From contig JAZLGV010000132.1 in the NCBI GenBank assembly GCA_045616505.1, positions 3,245 to 67,244 of the forward strand: DNA of 64,000 nucleotides, given 5' to 3'. Below, piece after piece: positions 772 through 61,709 of the stretch; within the stretch, counting starts at the first letter, position 1; every line of letters starts with the position of its first letter. Source of the stretch: Candidatus Gastranaerophilaceae bacterium. GTDB taxonomy: Bacteria > Cyanobacteriota > Vampirovibrionia > Gastranaerophilales > Gastranaerophilaceae. A program made the translations under genes and the position numbers. The notes below the pieces were generated by a model that was given only the letters and a program-made list of their open reading frames with translations, was not told the DNA's origin and ran no database searches.

Positions 772-1512
772 ATGAAAATTAGTGCTTTAAATAGTTATTC
801 ACAAGCTTCATTTAAACAAAACAATGTAGCTTCAAAAAATGTTACAACACCTGCTTTTGAAGGTACTCAACATATTGCAAAAGTTTCAGGTAAAAAATTA
901 GCAATGGCTCTTGCAGCAGGTTTAGCAATTGCAACTCCTGCACTTCAAAGTTGTGCTTCAAATCAAGTTCAACCAACAAGAGTTCAAGCTCCAGAAATAC
1001 AAAAAACTCCAATGGAAATAGCTTTAGAAAATGCAGAAAAAGCTGCTCATACACAAGCAAGAGCAGAAGCTCAAGCAAAAGCTGATGCTTTAGCACAAGA
1101 AAAAGCAGACGCTCAAGCTGTAATTGTTGCAGAAAAAAGAGCAAAAATGTATGCAGAAGAAAGAGCAGACGAAAACGCTACTAATTTAGCTACCTCTAAA
1201 GCAAGTGAAATCGCTAAAAAATTAGCTACATATAAAGCACAAGATATTTATAATGAAACAGGTAAACCTGCAACTGTTACTGAAACAGCAACATATACTG
1301 CAACTGCTAATGGCTGGTGTGGTTATTATTCAAGAGAAATTGGAGTAGCAACTGCAAAAGCAACTGTAACTACTGAAAAAGTTGGCGATAATCCAACAGA
1401 AGAAATTACAGAAGGCGCAATTTCTCAAAAAGAAGCAACTCATTATGCAGAATATACAGCTACATCAACTAAAACAGCAACTGCAACAGAAACAGTAACT
1501 GTTGGTGAATAA
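772..1512 (+). CDS. hypothetical Ala/Thr-rich protein with an internal lipoprotein-like signal
   Basis: ATG 772 (MKISALN...) lies downstream of GAAGGA; the track start 739 adds 11 aa. An h-region plus lipobox (LAMALAAGLAIATPALQSC) sits about 45 aa in. AQAKADALAQEKADAQA and TATYTATA low-complexity blocks follow. A terminator lies downstream. Confidence 0.6.
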   Translation: MKISALNSYSQASFKQNNVASKNVTTPAFEGTQHIAKVSGKKLAMALAAGLAIATPALQSCASNQVQPTRVQAPEIQKTPMEIALENAEKAAHTQARAEAQAKADALAQEKADAQAVIVAEKRAKMYAEERADENATNLATSKASEIAKKLATYKAQDIYNETGKPATVTETATYTATANGWCGYYSREIGVATAKATVTTEKVGDNPTEEITEGAISQKEATHYAEYTATSTKTATATETVTVGE

Positions 1513-1544
1513 AAAATTAAATTAGAGTATATTTAAAATAAAAA

Positions 1545-1578
1545 CCCTAATCCGTCAAAACAGATTAGGGTTTCTTTT
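1545..1578 (+). terminator. rho-independent terminator
   Basis: The stem CCCTAATC / GATTAGGG is followed by TTTCTTTT. Confidence 0.8.
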
Positions 1579-1600
1579 ATAATAGATATTTTTTGTTATA

Positions 1601-2017
1601 ATGAATATTATGAAAAATAAGGTTATAAATTTTTGGTTTTCATTGTCCGACAAAATAAGATTTTTATTTGTTGGTGGTTTTAATTTCGCATTTGCTTATT
1701 TTTTGTTTGTTGTAATAACTTTTATTATCGGAAAAGAACATTATCAGCTTGATTTGGTTTTGTCTTGGATTTTATCATCTTTTGTATCTTATACAACTCA
1801 AAAAACTTTGGTATTTTGTACAAAAGGAAATATTATAAAAGAATATCTTAAATGTTTTACAAGCTGGATGGTTAGTTATGCAGTAAATGCGTTGTTGTTA
1901 GAGTTATTTGTTAGTGTTTTAGGTATAAATGTATTTATTTCACAATTTTTTGCGACAGGCATGGCTGCTGTTGTAACTTATATTTTATTTAAGTGTTTTG
2001 CTTTTAAACAAAAATAA
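1601..2017 (+). CDS. GtrA family membrane protein
   Basis: It is 138 aa with 4 predicted TM segments. The N-terminal FLFVGGFNFAFAYFLF motif is typical of GtrA-like proteins. Confidence 0.7.
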   Translation: MNIMKNKVINFWFSLSDKIRFLFVGGFNFAFAYFLFVVITFIIGKEHYQLDLVLSWILSSFVSYTTQKTLVFCTKGNIIKEYLKCFTSWMVSYAVNALLLELFVSVLGINVFISQFFATGMAAVVTYILFKCFAFKQK

Positions 2018-2022
2018 AATTT

Positions 2023-3294: not shown

Positions 3295-3369
3295 TATCTA
3301 ATTCCTTTTATATTTTTTATTATCAATAGAAATAGGCTTGTGTAAAGTAAAATTTATATAAAGATGCGA

Positions 3370-3410: not shown

Positions 3411-3419
3411 TATTTTGTA

Positions 3420-4513: not shown

Positions 4514-4541
4514 TTTGAAAATTTGTTATATAATACAAGCT

Positions 4542-5663: not shown

Positions 5664-7075
5664 TCAATTATAATTTCTTGTTCATTTTGATAAATAACAT
5701 AGCCAAGATTAGCTTTTGGCGGTTTTTTAAGGTTTTTTGCTTTTGTGTAAATTATTCCAACTTTAGAAGAATTTTTTGCAATAGAGTATTTTTTTGCAAG
5801 TTTTGCACATTCAAAAATGATTTTATCGTTTTCTTTTTGTCCTGCTTCAAGTCGCAAAAGTATGTGAGAGCCTGCACAATTGTGGATATGAAACCATAAA
5901 TCGTTTGGACGTGCTAGTTTTGATACGATATAATCATTTTGTTTGTTATTTTTGCCAATATAAATTTCAAAATTATCAATTATTTGTTTATCTATTTTTG
6001 ATGGTTTTGTTTTTTCAGTTTTTTGGTTTGGTGAAATTTCTTCTTCAATTTCTTTTAGTTTGTCATAGGTATCACATTCTTCTATTGAATATAAAATTTG
6101 TTCAATATTTGTTTTTTCAAGTTCTAGTTCTTGTATCATTTGTGTTGTTTTTTCAAGCGCAACTTTTCCTTTTGTGTAAAGTTTGTAGTAGCGGTTTGCG
6201 TTTTCTTTTAAAGTTTTTGTTTCATCAAGATTTATTTTTAGTGTTTGATTTGTTTCATAATCAAAAATTTCAATATTTTTTGAGTAATCTTCATTGTTGT
6301 AAAGGTTACTCATTATCAAATCACCAAGTTTTCTATAATTTTCAGTTTTTTCTTTTGGTGTTATTTGTCGTTTAATTTTAGAAATGGTTTGTGTAATGTG
6401 TTTTTGTTTTTGGTTTGCTATTTGAAAAATTTTCGATTTTAAATTTTTAATTGTTTTTTCATATTGAAGATTTGCAAAATAATCGTCAATTTGTGAATTG
6501 ATATCCGTTGTTTTAAATATGCTTGAAAGTCCTTTGAAATCTCTTTTTTGTGCTTTTGGTGGGTAGCAATATGGCAAACCTCCAAAGAGTTCTCTTTCTC
6601 TACTTTTTTCTGCTCCAACATTGTGTGCACAACCGATTATCATATTTGTATCGTAGTTGTATAATATGATATTTGAGTGTTTTCCCATTAATTCTATTGC
6701 TAAACAAAGATATATTTTTTCGTTTGTTTCATCATAAGTTTCAAAATAAAATTCTAAAATCCTCTCGCTTTGTGGTTGAACTATTTTTGCAATTTGTGAG
6801 CTTTCTAAATATTTTCTTAGTAGCATGCAAAACATAGGAGGTTTTTGAGGCATTTTAATAAATCTTTTTTCCTCATTTTCCTTTGTCATAAAACAAACAT
6901 GAAACATGCTTGGGTTGATGTTTATGTAAAATTTTCTTGTTTCTCCAAGATTTCTAATAGAGAAAACAAGTTCAGTTCTTGTTGGTTGTTGAATTTTTTG
7001 TATTCTTGAGTTTTTAAGAAAATCAATGTTTTCTTTTAAAAAGTTTTCAAGCAGAATGTAATCAAAGTTATTCAT
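5660..7075 (-). CDS. rqcH: NFACT-family ribosome quality-control protein (RqcH/FbpA-like)
   Basis: It has an NFACT-N-like N-terminus, a central coiled coil and a C-terminal NFACT-R/DUF814 motif (DLWFHIHNCAGSHILL). ATG 7075 overlaps the upstream stop by 8 nt. Confidence 0.85.
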   Translation of the reverse strand: MNNFDYILLENFLKENIDFLKNSRIQKIQQPTRTELVFSIRNLGETRKFYININPSMFHVCFMTKENEEKRFIKMPQKPPMFCMLLRKYLESSQIAKIVQPQSERILEFYFETYDETNEKIYLCLAIELMGKHSNIILYNYDTNMIIGCAHNVGAEKSRERELFGGLPYCYPPKAQKRDFKGLSSIFKTTDINSQIDDYFANLQYEKTIKNLKSKIFQIANQKQKHITQTISKIKRQITPKEKTENYRKLGDLIMSNLYNNEDYSKNIEIFDYETNQTLKINLDETKTLKENANRYYKLYTKGKVALEKTTQMIQELELEKTNIEQILYSIEECDTYDKLKEIEEEISPNQKTEKTKPSKIDKQIIDNFEIYIGKNNKQNDYIVSKLARPNDLWFHIHNCAGSHILLRLEAGQKENDKIIFECAKLAKKYSIAKNSSKVGIIYTKAKNLKKPPKANLGYVIYQNEQEIIID

Positions 7076-9092
7076 TTTCGTTGTTAATTTCTTCTTTAAT
7101 GCCAATTGGTTCGTAGATGTCTATTTCTTCATTTCTACCTTTGACACTAATTCTTCCTGCTTCAAGTACAACAATTTTATCTTTTGCATCTTCATAAGTT
7201 GATTTTGAAATAAGAATATCTTTGCCAACTTTGTTGCAATTAGATTCAAGTCTTGAAGAAACGTTTACTGCATCTCCCATTGCTGTGTAGCTCATTATTT
7301 TTTGAGAACCTGATAGTCCTAAAAGAGCATCACCTGTATTGATACCAATTTTTACATCAAAAATAATTTTTCCTTCTTTTGCGTTTTTAACGGCAAGTTC
7401 GCCGACTCTTTTTTTGATGTCTAAAGCAGTTTTTACTGCCATGTAAGCGTCGTCTTCAGAAGCAAAAGGGTCGCCCCAGTATGCCATAACGCAATCGCCG
7501 ATAAATTTATCAACTGTTCCATTGTTTTCAAAAATAACATTAACTATTACATCAAGCAATTCGTTTAAGTTTGAAACTAATTGTTCAGGATTTGATTTTT
7601 CTGACAATGTAGTAAAGTTTTTAACGTCGCAGAACATTACTGTTATACGTTTTTTAGAACTTTTTAATTCAAGGTTATCTTGATTTTTCATTAATTGAGT
7701 TAGAACTTTTGGAGAAACAAATTTTCCAAACATGTTCATAATTGTTGCTTTTTTAGCAAGTTCTTTTTGAAATCTGTATGTGAAAACTAAAATTGAAGTT
7801 ATTATGAAATAATATAAAGGAGTTGCTAATGGAATCCAAAGTCTTATGTTTGGTGCTGTAAAAGCTAATATACATATTAAAATGTATAGAATAAGAAAAC
7901 AAGCTGAGTTTAAAAAACTGTATGTTGCATTTTTACAAATAAAACCAATGTAAACAAGGATGATACAACCTAATGCTCCAATTGCAAAAGAAGTTATTGG
8001 ATTTAATCTTGTGATGAATTTTCTTGTTCCTTTAGTGTTTATTCTTGAATCATTAATAAAGTTATCAAGAGCAACCGCATTAGCTTCAGGACCTGCAAAA
8101 GTAGGGTTTACAGCACTTGTGTGAATATCTGTTCCTGCTTCTGTACGACCGATAACGACAATTTTATCTTTAAAAACATCTGGTTTTACAGTATTTTTAT
8201 GTATTCCGGCTTTGCTTAAAAATATTTTTGAAATAGGAATATATCTGTAATTTTTTCCTGTTCCATGCCAGCCAATAGCTGTTTCACCATTATTGTTTAT
8301 AGGGATAATTCTGTCTTTGTAATATAGATTATTATTTTTTATAGTTATTTTTCCATCTTCGCCAACGGCTTTCAAAAATCCTGCAAAAGAAAGTGATGGA
8401 ATGTAGAATACTTCACCATTTTTCATTAGTTTAAAAATAGGTTGAGCATTTCTAATTACAGAGTCTGTTCCAACAACTTTGTTTACAACTGCCATTGTTG
8501 CATTTCTTGTGTAAATAGAATGGATTGGAGCATGTGAATAATATGTTATTGCATCGTCCAAATTGTCATCTTCAACATATACATCTAAAGATTTTTTTGT
8601 AGGTATGTAGTTGCTATTTTGAATTTGAGATTTATCTTTTAGTCTTCTTACCAAATATTCAGGGTCATTTAGCGAAGTTGCAAGAACAATGTTGTCATAT
8701 TTTCCAATTTCGTTGGCAAGCTTTCTGTCATTTGCTGGATTTTCATTTAATTCGTTGAAAATAATATCGAAAAGAATTGCTTTTGGTTTGCCTTGTTCTA
8801 TAAAGTTAACAACGTCTGCCCAAACACCTCTTTGCCAAGGGAAAGAACCAAGTCCTAGTTGAGGATGTTTTGCAAGTTCTTTTCTTGAATAATCGTCAAT
8901 TGATACAAGAACGATATCTTTGTCGGCAGGTTTAAAGAAATTGCTAAAAGGACCATTGTCCAATGCAATTTTTGTTCTGGCATCATAAGTCATAAGTTCT
9001 AGTGATTGAAAAACTCCAGTTAGTGAAATAAGTCTTTCAACTACAATTATGAGTACAACAGTGCATGCGATAATTAATAAATTTTTTTTCAT
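7068..9092 (-). CDS. CHASE2-domain class III adenylate/guanylate cyclase
   Basis: It has an N-terminal TM segment, a large extracytoplasmic region, three TM segments, then a cyclase core (TVMFCDVKNFTTLSE, FIGDCVMAYWG, GDAVNVSSRLE). Confidence 0.85.
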   Translation of the reverse strand: MKKNLLIIACTVVLIIVVERLISLTGVFQSLELMTYDARTKIALDNGPFSNFFKPADKDIVLVSIDDYSRKELAKHPQLGLGSFPWQRGVWADVVNFIEQGKPKAILFDIIFNELNENPANDRKLANEIGKYDNIVLATSLNDPEYLVRRLKDKSQIQNSNYIPTKKSLDVYVEDDNLDDAITYYSHAPIHSIYTRNATMAVVNKVVGTDSVIRNAQPIFKLMKNGEVFYIPSLSFAGFLKAVGEDGKITIKNNNLYYKDRIIPINNNGETAIGWHGTGKNYRYIPISKIFLSKAGIHKNTVKPDVFKDKIVVIGRTEAGTDIHTSAVNPTFAGPEANAVALDNFINDSRINTKGTRKFITRLNPITSFAIGALGCIILVYIGFICKNATYSFLNSACFLILYILICILAFTAPNIRLWIPLATPLYYFIITSILVFTYRFQKELAKKATIMNMFGKFVSPKVLTQLMKNQDNLELKSSKKRITVMFCDVKNFTTLSEKSNPEQLVSNLNELLDVIVNVIFENNGTVDKFIGDCVMAYWGDPFASEDDAYMAVKTALDIKKRVGELAVKNAKEGKIIFDVKIGINTGDALLGLSGSQKIMSYTAMGDAVNVSSRLESNCNKVGKDILISKSTYEDAKDKIVVLEAGRISVKGRNEEIDIYEPIGIKEEINNENE

Positions 9093-9160
9093 AAATAACA
9101 AATTTCCTAAAAATAAACTACATAATTTTTTATTATTATGTCATAAAAATAAAATAATTT

Positions 9161-9523
9161 TTAAGAAAGTTCAAGTAATGCTTTTACAGAACGAGCGTTA
9201 TCTTTTACTGATTCAATTTCGCAATTTTTTTCTGTTTCAGAAAGTATTTCAAGGGCTATGACTTTGTTTTCTAAAGCAATAAGATTGTTTATTGTTCCCA
9301 TAGCAACTGTTGTATCAAGGTCATTGATACCTTTTCCGTCTTTTGAAATAATAACAGATAAAGAGTCTTTTGAATTTCTTTCAACAAGAGCTTTTGCTGT
9401 AAGCATTCTAACTTCTGAATCTGCACAATTTGTTCCGATTTCTTCCAAAACGCCAACAGCAGAACTGTCTTCGTGCTTTGATAGTGCATCTATTACATTT
9501 GCAAGTTTTTCGTTATTATCCAT
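9161..9523 (-). CDS. hypothetical small helical (HEAT-like) protein
   Basis: It is a 120-aa ORF that overlaps the upstream ORF by 8 nt. Its helical repeat pattern (VGVLEEIG...SEVRMLTAKALVE) is HEAT-like. Confidence 0.5.
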   Translation of the reverse strand: MDNNEKLANVIDALSKHEDSSAVGVLEEIGTNCADSEVRMLTAKALVERNSKDSLSVIISKDGKGINDLDTTVAMGTINNLIALENKVIALEILSETEKNCEIESVKDNARSVKALLELS

Positions 9524-9986
9524 TGATTATTCCTCTTGATTCAATTAAATTAATCATTTCAGTTCTTAAATCAGTAACATCTCGTCTTACAAGATTTTTT
9601 ACATTATAAGTATTATTTGCTAAATCCATTTTGAAAAATCTTTCAGAAGAATTGAAATTGAAAATAAGTTTAGAATCGTTCAAAAATTCAGTTACATTTC
9701 TCATTCCTTCTCTCATTCTTCTTCCAAAAGAAACAACAGAATCAAATCTGCCTGAAATTTTTTGGTTTAAAGAATTTATTGAACCTAGAACAGTATTGAA
9801 AGCTAATCTTCCTTTTTGAGTGATTTTTTCAGATATTTTTTCTCTCAAACCTACTTTTTTAGCGCTTTCAAAAACATCTGCTGTTATAATGTTTCCTCTG
9901 AAACTTGCTCCAAATGGGTTTGTATGATTTTGTGTTGTTTTTGCTCTAGGAGTAAATACGTTTTGTGAAATTTTATTTATTTGCAT
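9516..9986 (-). CDS. hypothetical protein carrying the shared N-terminal leader
   Basis: It is a 156-aa ORF and the first gene of the operon that ends with the cyclase and rqcH. Its N-terminus is MQINKISQNVF...ASFRGN. Confidence 0.5.
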   Translation of the reverse strand: MQINKISQNVFTPRAKTTQNHTNPFGASFRGNIITADVFESAKKVGLREKISEKITQKGRLAFNTVLGSINSLNQKISGRFDSVVSFGRRMREGMRNVTEFLNDSKLIFNFNSSERFFKMDLANNTYNVKNLVRRDVTDLRTEMINLIESRGIING

Positions 9987-10080
9987 GTAATGCCTTCCTT
10001 TTACTTTGTTATTAAATAACTCAACACTTTTAAGGTATCACAAGCTAATTTCTTTCAAATCGTCTATTTAATGTAGAAAA

Positions 10081-10111
10081 ACAAAAAGCACATTTTGAAA
10101 TGTGCTTTTTT
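10081..10111 (-). terminator. rho-independent terminator after the 4xGntR gene
   Basis: The stem AGCACAT / ATGTGCT is flanked by A and T runs on both sides. Confidence 0.75.
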
Positions 10112-10132
10112 AATTGATTTTTTAATGTTTGT

Positions 10133-11293
10133 TTATTGATAAACTTCAACATATTTTGGATTAACTGCAAGCCATTTAAATGATTGTGCAGATGTGTCAG
10201 GAGTGTCAATAACAAATGTTCCACCATATCTGCCTCTTTCAAATCTTAAATAACCTTCTTCTGCAAGATTATTTAATGCTTTTCTTACTGTGTTTGGGCT
10301 CAAATCCATTAATTTTGATAACGCATCAATTGATGGTAATTTTGAACCGATTGGATAATCGTTTGCGATTATATTTTTTAATTGGTTTTGAGTTTTTTCG
10401 TAGCAATAAAAAGCTGCATCTTTTGCAGGTGCAAATATTAAATCTTCTTTCTTTTGAAGATTAATAGAGTTTGGCATTTTTATTACGGTTGTTCCATATC
10501 TGCCTCTATGTGCAATGATTATTCCTTTTTTAATTAATGCTTTTTGTGCATCGTGTATTGTTTTTATACTTACTTTAAACTCTTTTGAAAGCTCTTCATG
10601 TGCAGGGAATTTATCACCAATTTTTAGATTTTTGATAATATATTTTTCTAAATCTTTTGTTATTTTTTGAACAAGGGTTACATTTTCAATGGAAGTTGAA
10701 GAATTTTCTTCTAAAGAAAAATTATTGTTTTTTATTGTTAAATAAAATTCTTTAGGATTTGATTTGTCATGCTCTAAAATATTTTGCAGACAAAGAGTTT
10801 CTAAAGCTAGTCTTGTTGTGTTTGGAGAAATTCCAATTAAACCAGACAAAACTCTTGAAGATGGCATTTTGTAGCCAATTGGCAAATTATTTGAAATAAT
10901 ATATTGTTTTATAGCATTAACGCAAATATCTTTTTTAGATGTAAGTTTTCTGATGTTTAAATTTTCGCATTTCCAATTTCTAATCATTGTTCCGATGCGT
11001 TGTTTAGATTCAACGTAACCTTTGTCTTCGATGTTTCTTAATGCGTTTTGAATTGTTCCAACGCTTACTCCTAAAAGATAAGCTAATTCTTCTTTTTTAG
11101 GTAGAAGGTCTGTTTCTTTGATTTTTCCACAACTAAAATCTTGTTCAATCCAAGATATAAGCCAGTTTGCAATAACATTTGATTTTGAGTCAAAAATGTT
11201 TTTTAATTCAGGCAAAGGCATTGAAATATCTTTTCTTGAAAGCTTGCGTAATTTAGTTTTATCTAATAATAAATAATTGTTTTCTTTTTCCAT
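10133..11293 (-). CDS. transcriptional regulator with four tandem GntR-type winged-HTH domains
   Basis: Four copies of the GntR HTH pattern are present: LPKKEELAYLLGVSVGTIQNALRNIEDKGYV, MPSSRVLSGLIGISPNTTRLALETL, FPAHEELSKEFKVSIKTIHDAQKALIKKGII..RGRYGTTV and LPSIDALSKLMDLSPNTVRKALNNLAEEGYL..RGRYGGTFV. Confidence 0.8.
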   Translation of the reverse strand: MEKENNYLLLDKTKLRKLSRKDISMPLPELKNIFDSKSNVIANWLISWIEQDFSCGKIKETDLLPKKEELAYLLGVSVGTIQNALRNIEDKGYVESKQRIGTMIRNWKCENLNIRKLTSKKDICVNAIKQYIISNNLPIGYKMPSSRVLSGLIGISPNTTRLALETLCLQNILEHDKSNPKEFYLTIKNNNFSLEENSSTSIENVTLVQKITKDLEKYIIKNLKIGDKFPAHEELSKEFKVSIKTIHDAQKALIKKGIIIAHRGRYGTTVIKMPNSINLQKKEDLIFAPAKDAAFYCYEKTQNQLKNIIANDYPIGSKLPSIDALSKLMDLSPNTVRKALNNLAEEGYLRFERGRYGGTFVIDTPDTSAQSFKWLAVNPKYVEVYQ

Positions 11294-11565
11294 TTTTACC
11301 CTTCACTTCTAATTTAAATTTTCTCTATGCGTTCACGATATAAATTATACCCTTATTGTAAAAAAACAAGCAAGAAAAAATTTGTTATTTGTTTAATGTT
11401 TTGTTACATTATATAAAAAATCACTAATAAATTCATCATTTAAGTATATTAAAAATATAAAATTTTAATAATTTTTGTAACAATGACATGCAAAATTTAG
11501 CAAATTATATTTTTTGGAGTTTTCTCATGGATGTAGTGTTTATAAATTGAAAAGTGGGTGTGATT

Positions 11566-13959
11566 ATGCAAGTATCAAAAATCGCTGGTTTAACTTTTGG
11601 TAATGTCGTTTCTAAACAACAAAATAACAAGGTTCAAAATTATAATACTATTCCATTAAATAATCAGGGCGACATGCTCATAAAATCTAATAACGTAAAA
11701 AATTCAGGTATTAATTTTGAACAAGGTCAAAATTATATAAAAGTTGTTTCTTTTGGTAGTATTCCACAAGCAGCTGAAATTTTTAAACCTGCTATTCAAA
11801 TGCGTGTTCAAGGTGTAAAAAATTTCCAACATAATATGGATCCTGAAAAATTAAAAGATGGCGCAGTTTATGCAATTAACAAACTTGCAAATGGTCTTTG
11901 GAAAGACGGACAAAGTTTAAAATATATGGTAAGCGAAAAAGTTATTAAATTAATTTCTCCTGAAGTTGGTGAAATTGGTAAAGTTCCTTCAGAAATTGCT
12001 CCTTTCCTAATTCCATTATTAAAAGATGATTCGAAAAATTATGAATTTGAATTGTCAAATGTAATTGCAGGAAACACAAAAGGTGCTTCAACAATTGGTT
12101 TAAGAGTAAATTTAATTTATAAAGGTAATTCTCCTGAAGAAGCTCAAGAAGCATTTGATGAAATTTTGAATGATGAACAAGCATCAAAGAAAGCATTTTT
12201 CTATCAAGCACCATCAACAACACGTGATGTATTGAATGAAATTTTGAAATTTGAAGAAAAAGATAATGGTATTGAATCTGCACAAAAAATGGAAAAAGCA
12301 GTTAATTCAATTGTTGATGTTTTAGATAATCCAGAAAACAAAAATATTTTGTTAATTGGTCATTGCAAACCTGATGGTGATACTTTGGGTTGTATTTTAG
12401 GTTTGAAAAATTCATTAGATATGGTTCATCCTGAAAAACATATTGATTGTGCAGTAGATGATGAAGTTACAGGTTTGTTCAGACACAAATTACCTGGTAT
12501 TGATAAAACTGTAAAACATCCTTATTCTCAAGAAAAAATTAACTTATTAACAGAAGAAATAAAAAGAGCAGAAGACAAAGGTGCTCCAGAAGCTATTATT
12601 AATGGTTTAAAAACTTCTTTAGAAAAAGCAACTGATAAAGAATTGTTGTTGGACAGAAATCAAAAATATGATGTAGTTGTATTGATGGATATTCCTACTC
12701 CAACAAGATTTTCAGCAGGTTTTAAAGATTATATTAAAGATGCAAAACAAGCAATCTATATTGATCACCACCCATATAAAGAAGAAGAATGGGATAATGC
12801 AAAAGAATCTACTGGTGTAGATATGAAAAATATTTTTAACAATAGTTTGGCATGGGTTGCAGAACGTGTACCTGCTGCTTGTGAACAAGCTGCAATTATT
12901 GCTTCAAAACTTTCGCCAAAAACAAATCCTTTAAATCCAGATAATACAATTTTGACAATGAATACTGATAAATTTAATGTAGATAAATTAAATGCAGCAG
13001 TTGCAGCATTCGTTACAGGTATTTGGACAGATACAGGCGGATTTGGTAGAACTGCAAATTTAGTACCTGAAGATATTATTGATAAAAATGGTAATCGTGT
13101 ACCAGTTGGAAACCGTCCTAATTTCTTGCCAGAAGGTATTTCAAAATGGATGATGAATTTGACTTCAGGCGCAATTGATAAAAAATGGATGCGTGATAAT
13201 ATTTCTTATGATATCAACGATGAAAAGAAAGATGGTGATATTGAACCTACTGCCAGAGAAAAAATGCTAGAAATAGCAAATAATTTCAAATATGAAAATA
13301 AACAAATCGGTTTAGGTATCGTAAATGCAACTTATGAACAAATGCAAGATGTTTTAGAAATTGCACAACAAAAAGAACCTGAAACAGGATTTTTAGATGT
13401 TCAAAACTCTTTCAAATATTCTGAAGTAATGGGTGATTTTAGAGCTTCTGAACTTCAAAATGGTATGAGTTCAAATTCTAAAAAAGGATTTGATGAATTA
13501 GAAGGTCCTGGACCTTATGATGAAGATAAAATCGCAATATTTATTTGCGAAAACGAACGTAAAGGTGAATTGAATACAGAAGGTAAACGTTCAACTGCAG
13601 ATGCTTTAAGATTTTCTTTCCGTTCAGTAGAAGGTACAACACACGCTGAATTGTTAGCTTCATTATTTAATGGTGGCGGACACGGTGGTGCTGCTGGTGG
13701 TCAAATTAAAGCTGACGGCGTTAGATTAAATACACCTTTGGTTGTCAAAATTAACGGTGAAACAGTTAGAAATAGTGAAAAAATTTACAAAGCATTAGTT
13801 AAAAATTATGATATTATGCATGATTCAAAACTATCTGCTGCTGAAAAAGCATTAAAAAGAACAAATATTGAATTAGTTCAAGATGAAAGTGGTGAACCAT
13901 CTATGAAAATTATAGAAAAATTAGTTCGTGAAATTCGTCACAATGAACCAATTAGATAA
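11566..13959 (+). CDS. DHH/DHHA1-family phosphoesterase (NrnA/GdpP-like catalytic core) with long extensions
   Basis: The DHH motifs are GHCKPDGDTLGC, VVVLMDIP and IDHHP. The DHHA1 motif is GGGHGGAAGG. ATG 11566 (MQVSK) is preferred to GTG 11554. Confidence 0.85.
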   Translation: MQVSKIAGLTFGNVVSKQQNNKVQNYNTIPLNNQGDMLIKSNNVKNSGINFEQGQNYIKVVSFGSIPQAAEIFKPAIQMRVQGVKNFQHNMDPEKLKDGAVYAINKLANGLWKDGQSLKYMVSEKVIKLISPEVGEIGKVPSEIAPFLIPLLKDDSKNYEFELSNVIAGNTKGASTIGLRVNLIYKGNSPEEAQEAFDEILNDEQASKKAFFYQAPSTTRDVLNEILKFEEKDNGIESAQKMEKAVNSIVDVLDNPENKNILLIGHCKPDGDTLGCILGLKNSLDMVHPEKHIDCAVDDEVTGLFRHKLPGIDKTVKHPYSQEKINLLTEEIKRAEDKGAPEAIINGLKTSLEKATDKELLLDRNQKYDVVVLMDIPTPTRFSAGFKDYIKDAKQAIYIDHHPYKEEEWDNAKESTGVDMKNIFNNSLAWVAERVPAACEQAAIIASKLSPKTNPLNPDNTILTMNTDKFNVDKLNAAVAAFVTGIWTDTGGFGRTANLVPEDIIDKNGNRVPVGNRPNFLPEGISKWMMNLTSGAIDKKWMRDNISYDINDEKKDGDIEPTAREKMLEIANNFKYENKQIGLGIVNATYEQMQDVLEIAQQKEPETGFLDVQNSFKYSEVMGDFRASELQNGMSSNSKKGFDELEGPGPYDEDKIAIFICENERKGELNTEGKRSTADALRFSFRSVEGTTHAELLASLFNGGGHGGAAGGQIKADGVRLNTPLVVKINGETVRNSEKIYKALVKNYDIMHDSKLSAAEKALKRTNIELVQDESGEPSMKIIEKLVREIRHNEPIR

Positions 13960-25192: not shown

Positions 25193-26344
25193 ATGTTGAT
25201 GAGTATGAAAAAGATTTTATTATTAGGAATAGCATGTATCGCACTTACTTGTGGAAAGGTTTTTGCAACAGAAAATGTTTTGCAAGCAATTCAAATCACA
25301 GGTGTTAAAGATAGTTATGATGTTATTTTAAAATCTGATGACGTAGCAGAAATCAAAAAAACTGTTCAAGCTCCAAACAAAATGATTATTCTTTTAAATG
25401 GTATTAGAGCTTCAAAAACAATTAATACAATTTATAACAATACTTCTTCTGTTGATAGTGTTGTTGTAGAACCAGTAACAGATGAATCTGTTAAAATTTT
25501 CATTCAAGCAGCAAATGTTCAAAATGCAAATATTCAATTTGATTCATTAAAAACTCCTTTAGGTGTTTTAAATAATTCACAAACTAATGAGCAAAAAGCT
25601 GCAAGTGAAATTTTATTGAGCGGACCTGTAACTTCATTTAGACCAATTGTAAAAGACGAAGAAGACGAAATTGATAGTTATTCATTGTCATCACTTATTT
25701 CTTATGTAAAAGGTTTGTTTGATGAAGACAAAGCAAGTTGGGCAATGACAATCGGTTTGCTTTTAGTATTGCTTTCAAGCATTGTGAAATTGAAAAAAAT
25801 GCAAAGTTCAGCTGCTAATAGAACATTGAGTCTAGGTGGTAATTTGCAACAACGTGAAATTGATATGTATCGTTCAAGAGTAAGAGAAGGTTTATCTCAA
25901 AATACGCAAGAATCATATAATCAAAATACGCAAAAACCTTCTTATAATGAACAAGCTTATGTTCCTCAAATGAGAGATGCTTCAAAATCAAATTATGGAT
26001 TGAAAACTTATCAAAACAGCACAAAAAGTCCATATATGACTCCAGAAGTTTCTCGTCCAAGATTGAATAACAACGCTTTTTCAACACCTGTAAAAACACC
26101 AGCAGCAGCTCCAAATGCTTTGCAACAAGCTGCTCAAGAAATTATCAAAAGAAATTCTGCAGCCAAAATGCAACAAGCTGCTACAAAAACTGTTTCAAAA
26201 CCAATTTCAGGTGCAAAATCAGCTCGTATTGATAGTATGAAATTTTTAGAAGATATTACAAAAATCTATGAAAATAGTGGTAGAGCAGATTTAGCACAAG
26301 GGTTGAAAAGTAATTATCAAAAAGCCAAAGCAGGCTTGAAATAA
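25193..26344 (+). CDS. AMIN-domain membrane-anchored protein with a Q/N/S-rich tail
   Basis: It has a Sec signal (KKILLLGIACIALTCGKVFA), an AMIN-like beta domain (IQITGVKDSYDVILKSDD...MIILLNGI...VKIFIQ), one TM segment and a low-complexity tail. Confidence 0.6.
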   Translation: MLMSMKKILLLGIACIALTCGKVFATENVLQAIQITGVKDSYDVILKSDDVAEIKKTVQAPNKMIILLNGIRASKTINTIYNNTSSVDSVVVEPVTDESVKIFIQAANVQNANIQFDSLKTPLGVLNNSQTNEQKAASEILLSGPVTSFRPIVKDEEDEIDSYSLSSLISYVKGLFDEDKASWAMTIGLLLVLLSSIVKLKKMQSSAANRTLSLGGNLQQREIDMYRSRVREGLSQNTQESYNQNTQKPSYNEQAYVPQMRDASKSNYGLKTYQNSTKSPYMTPEVSRPRLNNNAFSTPVKTPAAAPNALQQAAQEIIKRNSAAKMQQAATKTVSKPISGAKSARIDSMKFLEDITKIYENSGRADLAQGLKSNYQKAKAGLK

Positions 26345-45958: not shown

Positions 45959-46738
45959 ATGGATAGTTTGTTAACAGCAATAGCAAAAATGTTTCCTGCT
46001 TTTGATGCAAATTTTGCAGCAGGATTTATTGTTTTTTCCCGTTTTTTAGGCTTTGTTTGTTTTGCTCCCGTTTTTTGTCGAAAAGATTTTCCTATGATTG
46101 CAAAAATAGGTTTTGTTTTTTTGACGACTATTATGATAGTTTGTATTTTAAAACCTTCTGCTCCACCAATGGGAAATGATATAATTGTTCCAATTGTGTT
46201 AAATTCAGCGGTAGGTGCGATGCTTGGGTTTATGGCAAGGTTAATTTTGATTGCTGTAGATGCAGGCGGAGATATGATTAATATGCAAATGGGGTTATCT
46301 TCTGCGATGGTTTTAGACCCAACTTCTCAAAAACAAGTGTCTTTGATGGAAAATATTTTTTCACTTTTAGGTGTTTTGATTTTTATAAATGTTGGTGGTA
46401 TTTATTGGCTTTTTAATGCTTTTATGAGAAGTTTCGATGTGTTTCCTTTATATGCGATGTCAATTCCTTTGATGGACATTGTTAATTTTGATTATTTACT
46501 TAAAATGACATCTAATGTGTTGTTTATGGGGTTACAAATAGCGTCACCAATTTTGCTTGCAACATTAGGACAAGATATTATTCTTGGTACGATTTCAAAA
46601 ACAGCTCCTCAAGTAAACGTATTTCAATTGAGTTTCTTATTTAAACCTGTTTTTGGCGCAGCAATTATGATTTGGATTATGCCAATGATGGTAAATGTTA
46701 TAACTGAATATTTTATGTCTTTTTCAAGAATTTTTTAA
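45959..46738 (+). CDS. fliR: flagellar export gate protein FliR
   Basis: It is a 259-aa polytopic protein. FSRFLGFVCFAPVF and GGDMINMQMGLS are typical of FliR/SctT. Confidence 0.9.
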   Translation: MDSLLTAIAKMFPAFDANFAAGFIVFSRFLGFVCFAPVFCRKDFPMIAKIGFVFLTTIMIVCILKPSAPPMGNDIIVPIVLNSAVGAMLGFMARLILIAVDAGGDMINMQMGLSSAMVLDPTSQKQVSLMENIFSLLGVLIFINVGGIYWLFNAFMRSFDVFPLYAMSIPLMDIVNFDYLLKMTSNVLFMGLQIASPILLATLGQDIILGTISKTAPQVNVFQLSFLFKPVFGAAIMIWIMPMMVNVITEYFMSFSRIF

Positions 46739-49392: not shown

Positions 49393-49956
49393 ATGGTAAA
49401 TAGTATCAGTGGCAATGGTGGTAAAAATGCTTATGTAAATACTCCAGAGTATCAACAAATAAAAGCAGAGCATCCAGATGCTGTTTTTAATTTTGATGCA
49501 GAAACAGGTAAATTGACATGGACAGAAAAATCAGGTGGTTTTTTAAATAAAAGTTCAACAAGTGGATCTGTGTATGTGGACGTTTCGCCATCGGAAGAAG
49601 ATATGCTTGCCCAAATTGGAAAAGATATGGATGCTATGTCTTTGGAAAAATACATTGATGCAGGCTTTGTAGCTAAAAAAGGAAACGGAAATTATTACGA
49701 AGTCGATTTGAAAAAAATGCAAGAAGTATTAGGAAAAGACGTTACTTTGGCTGATGTGAAAGAAATGTTTGGACTTGCAGATGGTGCTTTAGTTGCAGCA
49801 AATAATAATATTTATTTTGAAGATGCTCCGTATGATAACAAAGGTCAGTATGCAGGCAGAAGTTTAGATGATGCAAATATTGCTGATGTTGTACACGGAA
49901 ACGGTAAAATAAAAATTCCTGCAAAAGATATGTTTAAAACAAATGGTTTTAAATAA
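49393..49956 (+). CDS. hypothetical protein (polar N-terminus, no signal peptide)
   Basis: ATG 49393 (MVNSISGNGG...) lies 8 nt after AAAGGA, whereas ATG 49387 is too close to the SD. A terminator follows. Confidence 0.5.
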   Translation: MVNSISGNGGKNAYVNTPEYQQIKAEHPDAVFNFDAETGKLTWTEKSGGFLNKSSTSGSVYVDVSPSEEDMLAQIGKDMDAMSLEKYIDAGFVAKKGNGNYYEVDLKKMQEVLGKDVTLADVKEMFGLADGALVAANNNIYFEDAPYDNKGQYAGRSLDDANIADVVHGNGKIKIPAKDMFKTNGFK

Positions 49957-54816: not shown

Positions 54817-56907
54817 TTAGAATTTTATTTTTGCAGAGATTGTACCTTTAGCTTTTTTAGTATCAAGGTTATATGAAATATTTCCTTCAACAGTTGTGTT
54901 TTCTTTTTCAAAACCAAAACTTGAAGTTAATTCTGTTTCGTCTTTGATTGTTTCGTCAAACAAATTGATTGCTATTTGTTCTTTTTCTTGTTCAACACCA
55001 AGTTTTGCAAAGATATTTGCATCGTTGATTTTGTAGTTTGCTCCAATTTCTGCGTTATATCCTGAATGTTCAAAATGTGGGGTGTGAGAATAAAAACCGC
55101 TTGCATTTGCTGTTAAATTAAGATTTTCTGTAGGATTGTAATTTAATTTTGAAGCTCCTTTGAAATTAATTCCAGCAGCAAGGTTGTGTCCTGTTATCGA
55201 TTGGTCATATTCTTTTTGATTTAAGTCTAAAGGCATTCCAACGCTTAATTGATTTGTAAAATCTAATTTATCGTTTTTAAACTCTGCTTCAACACCGACT
55301 TCATCGGTAATTCTTAAATCACCGTCTGTAATAAACATTCTTGCTTTACTATTTGCAGCTCCATTTCCTTGAATTCCAACACTGCCAAGTACAGAGAATT
55401 TTGTATTTTCTGTTTCAGCAATTTGTTTTTTGTCTGTTGCATTTGCATTTATTGCTGCATAATATTGAGTCATTTTTGAATCTATTATTGCAGATATAGT
55501 TGAATCTGCATTTAGTGTTACAGAATTTGTTCCTTTATTAATTTGTTTTGTTAAATCCGCATCTAAACCAATAGAAGTTGCTTTATCAAATGATTTTGTA
55601 TTTTCAGATATTTTTAATTCTGCTGAATAGCTACCTTGATTAATAATTGAACTTCCATTTGCAGTATTTTCTTCTTTGGTTTTAGTTAAATTAATTCCTT
55701 TTGTTGAAATTGTCAAAGAATTGTCATCTTTTATATTTGTTTTATCAAATAAATTTGTTTTGTCTGTGCTTGATTTATCTAGTTTTTCACCAAACGCAGC
55801 TTCTTCTGTATAAAGAATTTTTTTGAAAGAACCTTCGTTACTTTTTAATCCTAAATATCCTTTAGAAGTGAAATTGTTGTCTTCTTTAGAGATTTGTTTG
55901 TAGGCATCTTCAATGTTATCTGCTTCATAAACTTGGCTTTTTTCGTAGTTGTTCCAAACGTATTTGTCACCAACTTTGTATAAAAGTGTTGCATGACCCA
56001 TTGCTTTATTATTTGTTTCTTGTAAACCTGATATAACAGTTGCAGGTATTTCTGATTCTGTAAGCATATCTGCAACAAGTCCATGCATTGTTTCACAAAT
56101 TGCACCTTTTACTTCTTCTGTGAAATCAGCATTTACAAATTGCATTAATTTTTCTGGGTTTGTACCTTCTATTCCAGAATAGTCCAAATCATAGTCATAA
56201 TTTTCGCTAAAATCTGCCAACATACTATCGACTAAAGTTCCGATATATTCAGGATTATCTTTGTTTTTAGTCATAGAGTCGATGGTTTTTTGATAAACTT
56301 TATCGGCTGAACCTGAAAGTTTTGCACAATCTTCTATATCTGAAAAATTGGCAATTTCCATATCATCAATGATTTTGTTAAGTTTTTCTTTGTTTTTTTC
56401 AGTGTCCTTTTTGAAATTTTCATTTTTTTCTTCTAAACTTTCGATATCCATTTTTGTGAAAGTCATTGTTGTTGTGAGCTTTGACAAACTTAGTTTAGTT
56501 TTGGCATAAGGGACAGTATTTGGTTTCATTTTTTCTAATTTTTCATTAAGTTCTTTATATTCTTTTTTTAATTCCTCCATTTCAGAATTTAATTTATCTA
56601 TTTCTTGTTGATACATTTCTGGATTTTTTTCATACTTTTCGATGTCTGCTTTTAGTTGCATTGCTTCGCTATAAGTTTTTGTGTCCATACTTCTTTTTTC
56701 AAAATCGAAAGGAGAAAATTCGTTTTCATTTTTTGGGAGTTCAACTATTTCTTTTTGTGTATTATTAGTATCTGTTTTTTCATCAGAAAAAACAGATGTA
56801 CCATTTTGATAACTGTATTCGTCATCAAAATTTATTTGGCTATTTGTATTTTCGCCAAATTGTATATTATTTTCAAATTTTGAATTTGTAATTTTTATTG
56901 AATTCAT
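54817..56907 (-). CDS. signal-less protein with a coiled coil, a transglutaminase-like Cys-His core and a C-terminal beta-barrel
   Basis: GAICETMHG...GHATLLYKVGDKYVWNNYE has papain/transglutaminase-like spacing. The last ~260 aa are alternating beta strands ending GTISAKIKF (terminal Phe). An in-frame stop lies just upstream of the start. Confidence 0.7.
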   Translation of the reverse strand: MNSIKITNSKFENNIQFGENTNSQINFDDEYSYQNGTSVFSDEKTDTNNTQKEIVELPKNENEFSPFDFEKRSMDTKTYSEAMQLKADIEKYEKNPEMYQQEIDKLNSEMEELKKEYKELNEKLEKMKPNTVPYAKTKLSLSKLTTTMTFTKMDIESLEEKNENFKKDTEKNKEKLNKIIDDMEIANFSDIEDCAKLSGSADKVYQKTIDSMTKNKDNPEYIGTLVDSMLADFSENYDYDLDYSGIEGTNPEKLMQFVNADFTEEVKGAICETMHGLVADMLTESEIPATVISGLQETNNKAMGHATLLYKVGDKYVWNNYEKSQVYEADNIEDAYKQISKEDNNFTSKGYLGLKSNEGSFKKILYTEEAAFGEKLDKSSTDKTNLFDKTNIKDDNSLTISTKGINLTKTKEENTANGSSIINQGSYSAELKISENTKSFDKATSIGLDADLTKQINKGTNSVTLNADSTISAIIDSKMTQYYAAINANATDKKQIAETENTKFSVLGSVGIQGNGAANSKARMFITDGDLRITDEVGVEAEFKNDKLDFTNQLSVGMPLDLNQKEYDQSITGHNLAAGINFKGASKLNYNPTENLNLTANASGFYSHTPHFEHSGYNAEIGANYKINDANIFAKLGVEQEKEQIAINLFDETIKDETELTSSFGFEKENTTVEGNISYNLDTKKAKGTISAKIKF

Positions 56908-59234: not shown

Positions 59235-59265
59235 TTCTATATTTTAGCATAAATTTTTTATTATG

Positions 59266-60711
59266 TTATTTGATGAATATTTTTTTTGATGAAAAAATAA
59301 AAAAGATAGTTATTATCGTTGCAATTATTTCAGATATATTAAGAGGAATATTAAATCCCATTTCTGCATTAAGTATGAAAGAAAGTGTTACAAACATAAA
59401 AAATATTGCAGGGATAAGTGTTATCCAAAAATTCTTATTCTTTTTATATAGAAAAACAGTTGCACATAAGAATGTCGGAATAGTAATAAGTTGGTTGAAG
59501 AATGTGAAATATCTCCATAAAAAGCCAAATGTTTTTACTTCCATTTTTGCCCAAGCAATAATTAAAATCATAACTATAGTGATTGGGATAATGATTATTA
59601 ATCTGTTTTTTACTTCTTTTTGAGAAAGGTTTAAATATTCTGCGATAATCATTCTTAAACCTCTTAACGCTGTATCTCCAGATGTTATTGGAAGAACAAT
59701 AACTGCGATAGTTACAATAAATGTTAGAAAAGTCGGAACAAAGTTGTCGGCTATAATATTTATTACACTTGATGTCCCAATACGACCTAGAGGTACAAGG
59801 TTGTTTGAATAAACATGCATTGCTCCTGCTGCCCAAATCATTGCAATTACTGATTCTATACACATCATTCCGTAAAAGATATATCTTCCATCATGTTCTG
59901 TTTTTATTGTTCTTGAAATAATTGTGGATTGAGTTGAATGAAAACCTGAAAGTAAACCACAGCTAACTGTCATAAAAAACATCGGAACTAATGGTAAATG
60001 TTTTGGATGTATGTTTAGGTTATGAATATCAAGTTCTTGCAAGGTTATTCCGTGAGTAAAAAATCCGATAAAAACGAAACCAGTTCCAAGTATTAGCAAA
60101 GCACATAAAAACGGATAATATTTTCCTATGATTTTATCAATAGGAAAAATTGTTGCAATAACAAAATATAGTAAGATTGTGATATACAAAATATCCATTA
60201 TCGGATTGCTAAATGTTAAATTTGTTTGGTGCAAAAATCTTTCTGCAACCAAATCTCCTGATGAAAATACAAAAACAGAAGAAACTAATAGTAGCAATAT
60301 TCCAATAATAACAGTAAAAGCTTTGAACATTTTTTGTCCAAGGTATTTTTTGATTAATCCTGTAATTTGTAATCCTTTATTTTTGACAGATAACATTCCT
60401 GCAAAATAATCGTGTACTCCGCCCATAAAAACACAGCCTAGAGGTATAAGAATAAATGCTATTGGCCCGAATAAAATACCTTGGATAGCTCCTAAAATTG
60501 GTCCTATTCCTGCGATATTTAAAAGTTGTATTAAAGCGTTTTTTTGTTTTGGAAGTGGAACGTAATCAAAACCATCGTTGTTTGTGATTGCTGGCGTTTC
60601 TTCATTAGATGGTTCAAATTGTTTTACAACATATTGTGAATAGAAAATGTAACCAAATAATAAAATTAAAAGCCCAATACAAAAAGTAATCATTTTTTCC
60701 CTGTAAATCAA
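59266..60711 (-). CDS. cstA: carbon starvation protein CstA family transporter
   Basis: It has LLNIAGIGPILGAIQGILFGPIAF and GGVHDYF motifs and is polytopic. An alternative start lies at 60693. Confidence 0.9.
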   Translation of the reverse strand: MIYREKMITFCIGLLILLFGYIFYSQYVVKQFEPSNEETPAITNNDGFDYVPLPKQKNALIQLLNIAGIGPILGAIQGILFGPIAFILIPLGCVFMGGVHDYFAGMLSVKNKGLQITGLIKKYLGQKMFKAFTVIIGILLLLVSSVFVFSSGDLVAERFLHQTNLTFSNPIMDILYITILLYFVIATIFPIDKIIGKYYPFLCALLILGTGFVFIGFFTHGITLQELDIHNLNIHPKHLPLVPMFFMTVSCGLLSGFHSTQSTIISRTIKTEHDGRYIFYGMMCIESVIAMIWAAGAMHVYSNNLVPLGRIGTSSVINIIADNFVPTFLTFIVTIAVIVLPITSGDTALRGLRMIIAEYLNLSQKEVKNRLIIIIPITIVMILIIAWAKMEVKTFGFLWRYFTFFNQLITIPTFLCATVFLYKKNKNFWITLIPAIFFMFVTLSFILNAEMGFNIPLNISEIIATIITIFFIFSSKKIFIK

Positions 60712-60770
60712 AATCCCACATTAAAATTTTAGCACGTAATAAATTTTTTAATGAGAAATATTATTAAAAT

Positions 60771-61709
60771 TTATATTTTTTGCCAAATTATTGTATTAGT
60801 TTGGTCTTTAGTGAAGTAGGGTTTGAAACCACAATTTTTTATAATTTCTGGAATTTGTCCTTTGACATCTTGAGTTTGGTGAATTTCATCACTTCCGATT
60901 ACAAAAAGCCCGTTTTTGTTTAGTTTTGAATATATTGATTTGATAATTGGTGTTAAATCTTTTTTAAGGTCATTAGAACTTTTCAAATTTCTTTCTATTA
61001 AATTATCAGAAATAATATTTGTTACGTGATACATAGCATTTCTAAAGAAAATTACATCATAGTCATTGTTTTTATCAATTTTATCTAAATCTGCAATATT
61101 TCCTTTTTGGAATTTACAGTTTTCTATTAGTTCAGGTTTGATTTTAAAATATTTTGTTTCGGTCGGGCATGCAATAGTTGTTTTCATCACAAATCTATCC
61201 CAAAATGGAATTTTAGCTTCTTTTTTAGATATTTCATTAACATTTTGCGTGAATAAATCTTTGTAATGAGCTTGTTCTGGTGAAAGATTGATAGTTTTAT
61301 TTATTAAAAAATTATCTTTAAAACAATCACGTGAATTTATTTTTTCAAAATCTTTTGGGCGTTTGTTTGCATAAATGGAGAATATTCCTTTTTCTGCTTT
61401 TTTTAAACAGTTTTCACTTAAATCTACTCCTGTGATTGAAATTTTGTTTTTCAAATCTTTGAAAGTCATGGCAAGAGAATATGTTTCTTCTCCTGTTGAG
61501 CATGCTGCGTCTAATATTTTTATATTTTTATTTTGTGGTAATTTTTTTAAGAAGTTTTTTACGATTTCAATGGGTTCTATATCTCTGAAAAAGCATGTTT
61601 CATTTATCAGAAGCGTATTTTTTTGAATACTTTTTGATATGGTGTCAGAACCTAAATAACTTTTAAAATTTGGTTTAGTATTATAATTTTGACAGCTGTT
61701 TATTTGCAT
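60771..61709 (-). CDS. CheR-type SAM-dependent methyltransferase
   Basis: It has INETCFFRD, ILDAACSTGEETYSLAM, DVIFFRNAMYH and NGLFVIGSDE. No other che genes are nearby. Confidence 0.8.
   Translation of the reverse strand: MQINSCQNYNTKPNFKSYLGSDTISKSIQKNTLLINETCFFRDIEPIEIVKNFLKKLPQNKNIKILDAACSTGEETYSLAMTFKDLKNKISITGVDLSENCLKKAEKGIFSIYANKRPKDFEKINSRDCFKDNFLINKTINLSPEQAHYKDLFTQNVNEISKKEAKIPFWDRFVMKTTIACPTETKYFKIKPELIENCKFQKGNIADLDKIDKNNDYDVIFFRNAMYHVTNIISDNLIERNLKSSNDLKKDLTPIIKSIYSKLNKNGLFVIGSDEIHQTQDVKGQIPEIIKNCGFKPYFTKDQTNTIIWQKI

Follow-up and report, generated by a model that had tools for sequence, protein, structure and literature searches.

The stretch of DNA analysed here (contig JAZLGV010000132.1, 64,000 nucleotides at its full length, hereafter the window) belongs to an uncultured member of the Gastranaerophilales, non-photosynthetic gut Cyanobacteria/Melainabacteria, and has a G+C content of approximately 30%. 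The Gastranaerophilales are widespread uncultured gut relatives of the Cyanobacteria and their cell biology is hardly characterised. The original prediction made from this sequence was that seven otherwise unrelated proteins begin with a similar polar leader, and the seven N-termini that it quoted are all present in the window, exactly as given and at the starts assigned to them. Three of them (starting at 772 on the plus strand and at 9986 and 61709 on the minus strand) have the core motif M-x-[IV]-[NS]-x-[IVL]-x(3-12)-[NS]-F-[KRG]-[GSA], and the analysis supports this motif as a lineage-specific N-terminal tag on unrelated proteins, beyond what is given by AT-rich codon bias. The N-termini are listed below with bit scores from leave-one-family-out hidden Markov models (HMMs), in which each family was scored with a model built from the other families.

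772-864, plus strand: leader of open reading frame (ORF) 772-1512, MKISALNSYSQASFKQNN, and behind it another P-x-F-x-G element (TPAFEG); 12.0 bits (24.7 bits with the iterated model); preceded by a Shine-Dalgarno-like box
892-954, plus strand: signal-peptide-like or membrane segment of the 772 protein, KK-LAMALAAGLAIATPA-LQSC, residues 41-61, Gly/Ala-rich
9888-9986, minus strand: leader of ORF 9516-9986 (family A1), MQINKISQNVF...NHTNPFGASFRGN, the most conserved part of the family; 11.5 bits
61650-61709, minus strand: leader of the CheR-like methyltransferase ORF 60771-61709, MQINSCQNYNTKPNFKSYLG; 11.7 bits (28.3 bits with the iterated model)
11566-11616, plus strand: possible leader of the DHH/DHHA1 protein (11566-13959), MQVSKIAGLTFGNVVSK, weak; 1.0 bit
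49393-49452, plus strand: degenerate look-alike, MVNSISGNGGKNAYVNTPEY, with the start block only and no Phe element; 3.0 bits (6.6 bits with a later model)
56848-56907, minus strand: N-terminus of ORF 54817-56907, MNSIKITNSKFENNIQFGEN, unsupported as a leader; 0 bits, no Sec signal
42885-42932, minus strand: N-terminus of the 1523-aa ORF 38361-42932, MTDKKINKITFSNKYD, unsupported as a leader; 3.8 bits, no Pfam family

Carriers of the leader in the window

The three leaders with the core motif scored 11.5-12.0 bits and four families from other genomes scored 11.7-18.8 bits (11.5-18.8 bits for the seven families overall), the best of approximately 8,000 control peptides, taken from internal Met codons or other frames, reaching 8.7 bits. 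The N-termini at 11566, 56907, 42932 and 49393 were inseparable from background by the same models. A leader shared by all seven proteins is thus partly confirmed, with three solid carriers, two weak ones (11566 and 49393) and two which are unsupported (56907 and 42932). The N-terminus at 11566 resembles a subtype found in relatives (MAISPVSAVTFGN and MISSVSRVSFGD), and that at 49393 resembles the start MINSVSGVNFRG of family 32.

The leader ATGs are credible as start codons, with Shine-Dalgarno-like boxes upstream and orthologues that begin with the same residues. Such a box was found 8-17 nt upstream of 17 of the 22 leader ATGs in the window and its relatives, compared with 64% of first ATGs and 13% of internal ATGs. 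Upstream of 772 the box reads GAAGGAAAAG and favours the start at this position over the upstream ATG at 739. A lipoprotein-type signal had been described behind the leader of the same protein; it is real as a sequence feature, and the codon listing has no alternative start directly before it. Searches of the seven proteins against Pfam and NCBIfam identified no N-terminal signal, and the domains found were limited to DHH/DHHA1 (11566-13959) and a CheR-type SAM domain (60771-61709), the latter beginning at residue 36 and without a CheR_N domain.

Occurrence, shape and conservation of the motif

The motif was followed through a lineage sample of 2.06 Mb, comprising the window, 71 loci anchored on the family of the small protein 9516-9986 (A1) and 80 metagenome loci anchored on FliP, the ORFs of which clustered into 773 families. 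Family A1 is present in 71 species-representative genomes, nearly all of which are labelled Gastranaerophilales, Melainabacteria or 'Cyanobacteria bacterium'. Homologues of the 9516-9986 protein are named only in 'Candidatus Gastranaerophilales' metagenome-assembled genomes (MAGs), and the nearest relative is found in a MAG from horse faeces (93% identity). Every ATG-initiated 45-residue peptide within genes or in other frames served as a control, so that the genome composition was the same. The seed families of the motif were picked by eye and the statistics from independent sets are modest (p ~0.02-0.03), with a direction that is consistent in every test.

An iterative HMM search converged on 16 of 547 N-terminal families, compared with none of 474 internal-Met families (8,591 peptides). 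With a model trained on five families, 6 further families and no controls reached at least 8 bits (p = 0.02), and in a hold-out on loci fetched later the counts were 2/196 versus 0/1031 (p = 0.025). The start block M[KQRNE][IV] opens approximately 8% of true N-termini versus 3.5% of internal Met positions. Its combination with the F block was found 9.5 times in true N-termini versus 2.9 expected under independence, and when an absence of acidic residues before the F block was added the counts were 8.1/493 versus 0/1705 for internal Met. The motif exceeds controls which share its composition and is confined to true N-termini, in support of something more than AT-rich bias alone. Carriers are not overrepresented among singleton (accessory) families (11/19 versus 402/599, p = 0.46).

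Wider searches with the leader itself gave no matches. A profile of 33 sequences and 19 positions found nothing among 1.84 billion proteins, a null result which is expected, as the leader gives approximately 25 bits at most, and which has no weight either way. A homologue search with a padded leader alignment returned 7 word-sharing candidates and no match. A degenerate DNA pattern for the leader had 4 occurrences in the A1 loci and was dropped for metagenomes, where its chance rate of 0.01 per 64 kb of AT-rich DNA means thousands of random matches.

From the alignments, the consensus consists of Met, I/V at position 2-3, usually N or S, I/V/L(C) three residues on, a variable spacer rich in N/S/Q/T/K/Y and then [P/V/L]-[NS]-F-[KRG…]-[GSA]. 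The invariant feature within this is the I/V at position 2-3, the I/V/L three residues on, and the Phe followed by K/R/G and then G/S/A. The tag is about 11-20 residues in length with its Phe at residue 8-20. A second P-x-F-x-G element lies around residue 29 in some leaders (A1, 772 and an AAA+ family), the subtype mentioned above has the form x-[VL]-[ST]-F-G-[ND], and families found later in independently fetched loci repeat the same pattern (MINSVSNVSFRG, MEIKNSYNKQNFNG and MAISPVSAVTFGN). A hydrophobic residue is often found 3-5 positions after [NS]-F-[KRG]-[GSA], and the N/S-rich tag has a hydrophobic period of three. The leaders had been described as free of both a hydrophobic core and acidic residues; no hydrophobic window was found in them, and the lack of acidic residues proved not to be general (MEIKSISEKIF and MIQKVQMGEPNF).

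The tag is under purifying selection at the protein level and lies outside the fold behind it. Of the 14 invariant columns of family A1, 11 fall within the first 40 residues, and the invariant residues of the leader are M1, I3, N23, P24, F25, F29 and G31. Another carrier found in relatives is a 5'-nucleotidase-like enzyme. In 62 of its orthologues (49-100% identity) F15 of the leader forms an invariant column, as do the metallophosphoesterase catalytic residues D27/H29/N31, and the I/V pair is retained throughout; the residue after the Phe is often E, Q, S or G. The conserved I, S, V, N, F and K are written with different synonymous codons across genomes, so that it is the peptide, rather than the RNA, that is constrained. 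On this ground, and because the window has no Rfam match, an explanation at the level of RNA was rejected. The AlphaFold2 model of the 5'-nucleotidase-like protein has a mean predicted local distance difference test (pLDDT) score of 92.7 and a predicted template modelling (pTM) score of 0.89, with residues 1-15 below 50 and no helix for residues 1-17. That of A1 (pLDDT 55, pTM 0.19) is a low-confidence model, readable only as an unstructured N-terminus.

A peptide which is conserved like an active site, yet is unpacked on its own protein, suggests a short linear motif recognised by another protein, and we infer that one shared machine would read the tag in trans. Restriction to the N-terminus, conservation in orthologues, synonymous codon use, disorder and the absence of a curated match together support the lineage-specific tag on unrelated proteins that had been proposed. 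The motif can already be used to flag functionally linked 'hypothetical' proteins and to correct start-codon annotation in these genomes.

Carriers and gene neighbourhoods in related genomes

The tag heads at least 16 otherwise unrelated families in approximately 2 Mb, corresponding to ~3% of protein families. The carriers include the 5'-nucleotidase-fold enzyme (566 aa), a GGDEF cyclase, the CheR-like methyltransferase, an HNH protein, an AAA+ ATPase and small membrane proteins, in addition to a possible GNAT and many family-less proteins of 97-375 aa. The 566-aa enzyme has the two-domain UshA/CD73/NadN 5'-nucleotidase fold (Foldseek E = 3e-27; PDB NadN by sequence, E = 4e-4). In the enzyme carriers only 4-5 residues separate the end of the tag from the first domain strand (e.g. 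FKSAKVNILATSDNHG).

Approximately 7 of the 19-22 carriers have a hydrophobic segment, flanked by Lys/Arg, 15-110 residues behind the tag, and most carriers are without any. These segments, with a Gly/Ala fraction of 0.38 versus 0.15 for hydrophobic segments elsewhere (p = 5e-5, n = 7), are unusually rich in the two residues for a genome of 30% G+C, and they come after Lys-rich stretches. Three carriers have a signal-peptidase or lipobox-like site, namely 772 (LQSC), the AAA+ family (…ALIASC) and family 614 (…LAVPLAATVLAMSPMASSA-K; SSA-K). The suggestion that carriers have membrane segments of no more than moderate hydrophobicity, like those of secreted type III membrane proteins, was unsupported (mean 1.97 versus 2.11, p = 0.4). 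Such segments were noted in the following regions.

Window, 892-954
Locus L070, 7095-8615
Locus L099, 1271-2020
Locus L091, 12285-12707
Locus L035, 2073-2612
Locus L093, 2177-3283

Two further features of the window are candidates for interaction with the tag.

9161-9523, minus strand: 120-aa protein with weak HEAT-repeat similarity (Pfam HEAT_2, E = 0.0099, below the curated cut-off), overlapping A1 in the same orientation; candidate binder or chaperone
43129-46738, plus strand: fliN-like, fliO, fliP, fliQ and fliR export-gate operon (Pfam FliMN_C, FliO, FliP, Bac_export_3 and Bac_export_1); candidate reader of the tag

In 66 of the 67 loci A1 has the HEAT-like gene after it. A variable slot separates this pair from an isocitrate/isopropylmalate-dehydrogenase-like gene and is occupied by the tagged 5'-nucleotidase-like gene (7 loci), by other tagged genes, by a glycosyltransferase or an MFS gene, or is empty, such that another tagged gene is often present beside the pair. 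Directly upstream of A1 in five loci (the window, L001, L047, L057 and L060) lies a gene (10133-11293, minus strand, in the window) for a 386-aa protein with about four GntR-type winged-helix repeats and no effector domain. Directly downstream of the pair lies a CHASE2 sensor fused to an adenylate/guanylate cyclase (7068-9101, minus strand), with the same family in this position in L001, L004 and L060.

The same isolated fliN-O-P-Q-R operon was found in 80 related metagenome loci. FlhA, FlhB and FliI are not encoded in the window, and there is no flhB or flhA beside the operon. The fliN-like gene product is 388 aa in length. FliQ, at 162-165 aa, is approximately twice the length of the 74-position Pfam Bac_export_3, which covers residues 4-75 only. 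In many relatives an ORF of ~115 aa with a signal peptide is located between fliQ and fliR (loci L072-L151, around 8300-12400).

The two unsupported N-termini of the window belong to large proteins rich in coiled coils. The 696-aa product of 54817-56907 had been described as a beta-barrel protein lacking a Sec signal. The barrel is plausible by eye, its C-terminal ~280 residues (54817-55650, minus strand) having an alternating beta-strand pattern and ending in ...GTISAKIKF with a C-terminal Phe, in the manner of an outer-membrane barrel, and there is indeed no Sec signal; no profile or structure match to a barrel was found. The hexapeptide SVFSDE is common to this protein and that of 38361-42932 (at 56779-56796 and 42822-42839, respectively, both on the minus strand), ~32-43 residues from their starts. 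The two proteins match each other with a BLASTP E value of 0.034, both genes have the box TTGTAAAAT 60-80 nt upstream, and they may form a small group of their own.

Sites of TTGTAAAAT in the window: 651, 682, 23379, 30760, 37998, 42987, 49296, 55254 and 56979

This box looks like a -35-type promoter box, with five of its nine sites upstream of the genes at 772 (two sites), 42932, 49393 and 56907. A correlation between the box and the leader had been put up for testing and did not hold. The number of sites in the window shows no enrichment (9 versus 6.2 ± 2.6 expected), and pairing of the box with the tag was rejected, as it is missing upstream of A1, the 5'-nucleotidase-like gene, the CheR-like gene and other core carriers, and upstream of the best-supported tagged genes of other genomes.

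Possible readers of the tag and known signal classes

The presence of a tag on ~3% of families implies a dedicated recognition machine. It is put forward here, tentatively and as a possibility that falls short of being probable, that the tag is an export signal for a flagellar-type III gate retained by the lineage. The original prediction had drawn the analogy with flagellar and type III export substrates, which is a reasonable one. The reader would be FliPQR/FlhAB with FliN/FliI, kept even where complete flagella have been lost. The I/V residues at positions 2-6 would act as the 'hydrophobic N-terminal signal' of Salmonella rod/hook subunits and the Phe element as the FlhB-docking gate-recognition motif, with tagged proteins, such as the 5'-nucleotidase-fold enzyme, being threaded unfolded out of the cytoplasm. 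Most Gastranaerophilales are without complete flagella yet keep export genes (PMC4040986, 2014), and in ~75% of their genomes the flagellar genes kept are limited to export genes such as flhB, fliI and flgG, 'postulated to be involved in extracellular secretion' (bioRxiv 10.64898/2026.04.24.720558). In Salmonella, unchaperoned rod/hook subunits have two signals, small non-polar residues 3-7 from the N-terminus (FlgD 2-SIAV-5) and the FlhB-docking 36-FLTLL-40, and these need at least 19 residues between them with an optimum of 24-30 (PMC8983047).

The tag is like these early flagellar subunit signals in its position at the extreme N-terminus, in being unstructured and chaperone-free, in its non-polar residues within positions 3-7 (I/V at 2-3 and 5-6 in the tag) and in having a short Phe motif downstream ([NS]-F-[KRG]-[GSA]), and the gate genes are present in the genome, within the same window. 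The tagged 5'-nucleotidase-fold enzyme is without a Sec signal, and the tag stands where its relatives have a signal peptide. The characterised members of the UshA/CD73/NadN fold are known as periplasmic or ecto-enzymes. If export is the function, the carriers would provide the first substrate list, and the motif a sequence-defined signal, for 'relic flagellum' secretion in a human-gut lineage, and speculation on reduced flagella as secretion systems would become a testable substrate list with a simple reporter assay.

Several observations weigh against export through the gate. The spacing of the two elements in the tag is usually 5-12 residues compared with the minimum of 19 in Salmonella. 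Most carriers have the Phe between residues 8 and 20, and a further element around residue 29 (SFKGNII) is confined to A1-type leaders. The cargo does not consist of axial flagellar proteins and includes normally cytoplasmic enzymes (GGDEF, CheR-like, HNH and AAA+), some carriers have membrane segments, and in about seven the segments behind the tag are more in keeping with a cytoplasmic N-tail or a Sec substrate than with type III export. Among the Foldseek matches of the 5'-nucleotidase-fold enzyme, a cross-link-derived model of Bacillus YunD with SpoVS points to the existence of cytoplasmic proteins with this fold. Tagged genes adjoining fliP are not enriched beyond ordinary synteny. The leader peptides gave no match to Pfam Flg_bb_rod (hmmscan, E <=10), the likeness between NYNTKPNFKS of a leader and NYNTYGYKS of the local rod protein being one seen by eye only. 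Most gut Gastranaerophilales have lost motility while retaining the flagellar type III gate. That the tag is the address label of a flagellum-derived exporter, with perhaps 50-100 clients per 2-Mb genome (the 5'-nucleotidase-fold enzyme, nucleases, nucleotide-signalling enzymes and small membrane-active proteins), is at present a doubtful proposition.

An alternative is a cytoplasmic docking or degradation tag, bound by a hub, adaptor or protease (the A1-linked HEAT protein, a polar/C-ring scaffold or ClpXP/ClpS/FtsH), which would co-localise or co-regulate signalling enzymes and the tails of membrane proteins. This is rather unlikely in its own right, although close to the export reading. It does better on the signalling enzymes and N-in membrane proteins and worse on the strictly N-terminal position and the exported-looking carriers. 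The domains of the carriers are typically those of cytoplasmic signalling or nucleic-acid proteins (GGDEF, CheR-like, HNH, AAA+ and possibly GNAT and DHH). Seven carriers have K/R-rich flanks N-terminal to the hydrophobic segment, which by the positive-inside rule would leave the tag in the cytoplasm. Conservation combined with disorder is the classic signature of a linear motif, A1 as the strongest leader family is paired almost without exception with the HEAT-like protein, and repeated F-x-G elements in A1 and other N-terminal regions (SVVSFGRR) suggest multivalent docking. However, the motif is never found after an internal Met, whereas docking does not require a position at residue 1; the HEAT assignment of the candidate binder is below the Pfam cut-off; the 5'-nucleotidase-fold carrier and the barrel-like 56907 protein look exported; and a degron on ~3% of families would be unusual. 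If docking or degradation is nonetheless the function, the tag would be a rare case of a bacterial proteome-wide N-terminal linear motif organising nucleotide-signalling enzymes.

It is improbable that the leaders have no shared function, with an AT-rich genome and selection for unstructured A-rich 5' coding regions giving M-K-I-N-S starts and the Phe elements being family-specific look-alikes. It is true that M[KQRNE][IV] starts are common, that four of the seven carriers first listed fail to beat background and that the p values from independent sets are modest for seeds chosen by eye. However, the start and F blocks occur together three-fold above independence, the same-composition internal-Met peptides gave zero matches, families found later in independently fetched loci repeat the pattern, and at ~50% identity the Phe is still invariant and the I/V kept, with synonymous codon changes, despite the disorder of the region. 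A very improbable explanation is that the tag is a Sec accessory, an extension which modulates signal-peptide targeting in the manner of the extended signal peptide region (ESPR, PF13018), or a pro-peptide cleaved at F-[KR] by a lineage-specific protease, possibly exposing an N-terminal Phe as an N-degron. The signal-peptide-like segments behind the tag in 772, the AAA+ family and family 614 would suit it, as would enzyme tags which end just before the first domain strand, and F followed by K or R would be a good ClpS ligand. Against this, most carriers have no hydrophobic segment, Pfam ESPR gave no match, no candidate protease was seen, and E, Q, S or G after the Phe in many orthologues fits poorly with a fixed cleavage site or N-degron.

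The original prediction could not match the leader to any known signal class, and this agrees with the present searches, in which neither Pfam nor NCBIfam gave any match to the isolated leader peptides at E <=10, YSIRK and other curated classes included. Nothing relevant on an N-terminal signal of Gastranaerophilales or Melainabacteria was found in the literature searched. A Sec, lipoprotein or Tat signal was rejected, as the leaders have no hydrophobic window and match no signal model of NCBIfam or Pfam; ordinary signal peptides do occur in the window, e.g. at 25193 and 29942. A type IV prepilin (class III) leader was rejected as the sequence after F-[KR]-G is polar (e.g. SFKGNIITADVFE and FKSAKVNILATSD) and no NCBIfam prepilin model matched. 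ESPR was likewise rejected, with no profile match at E <=10 and a signal-like segment in only a minority of carriers, 15-110 residues downstream. It is like the tag in being a conserved N-terminal extension before a signal peptide (3-7 carriers here have a signal-like segment) and unlike it in that its carriers are type V secreted proteins, whereas tag carriers are not autotransporters, are mostly without a signal peptide and have a different motif.

Among other known systems, the signals of injectisome type III effectors (Yop, Hop) resemble the tag in occupying the first 15-25 residues of unrelated enzymes, in being polar, disordered and rich in Ser/Asn/Thr/Gln, and in typically having an aliphatic residue at 3-4 and few acidic residues. 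YopE, for example, starts with MKISSFIS, which the tag MKISALNS resembles. They differ in that effector sequences are not conserved, whereas the tag has an invariant Phe element and, in several leaders, acidic residues, and no injectisome-specific genes were seen. Sorting tags such as LPXTG, PEP-CTERM, the C-terminal domain of type IX secretion, the Tat twin-arginine signal and YSIRK are similar in principle, in that where tens of unrelated proteins of a genome share a short lineage-restricted tag, one dedicated machine for its recognition is implied. They differ from the present tag in being placed at the C-terminus or inside a hydrophobic signal peptide; none was matched in NCBIfam or Pfam, and no partner enzyme was found here. 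The cargo-loading peptides of microcompartments and encapsulins are also short terminal peptides on unrelated enzymes, set apart from the catalytic domain or directly adjoining it, with a shell protein as reader, but the encapsulation peptides of microcompartments are amphipathic helices of ~18 residues with acidic residues, whereas the tag is N/S-rich and predicted to be non-helical. In comparison with these systems, the leader looks like a terminal recognition tag of a class not yet described.

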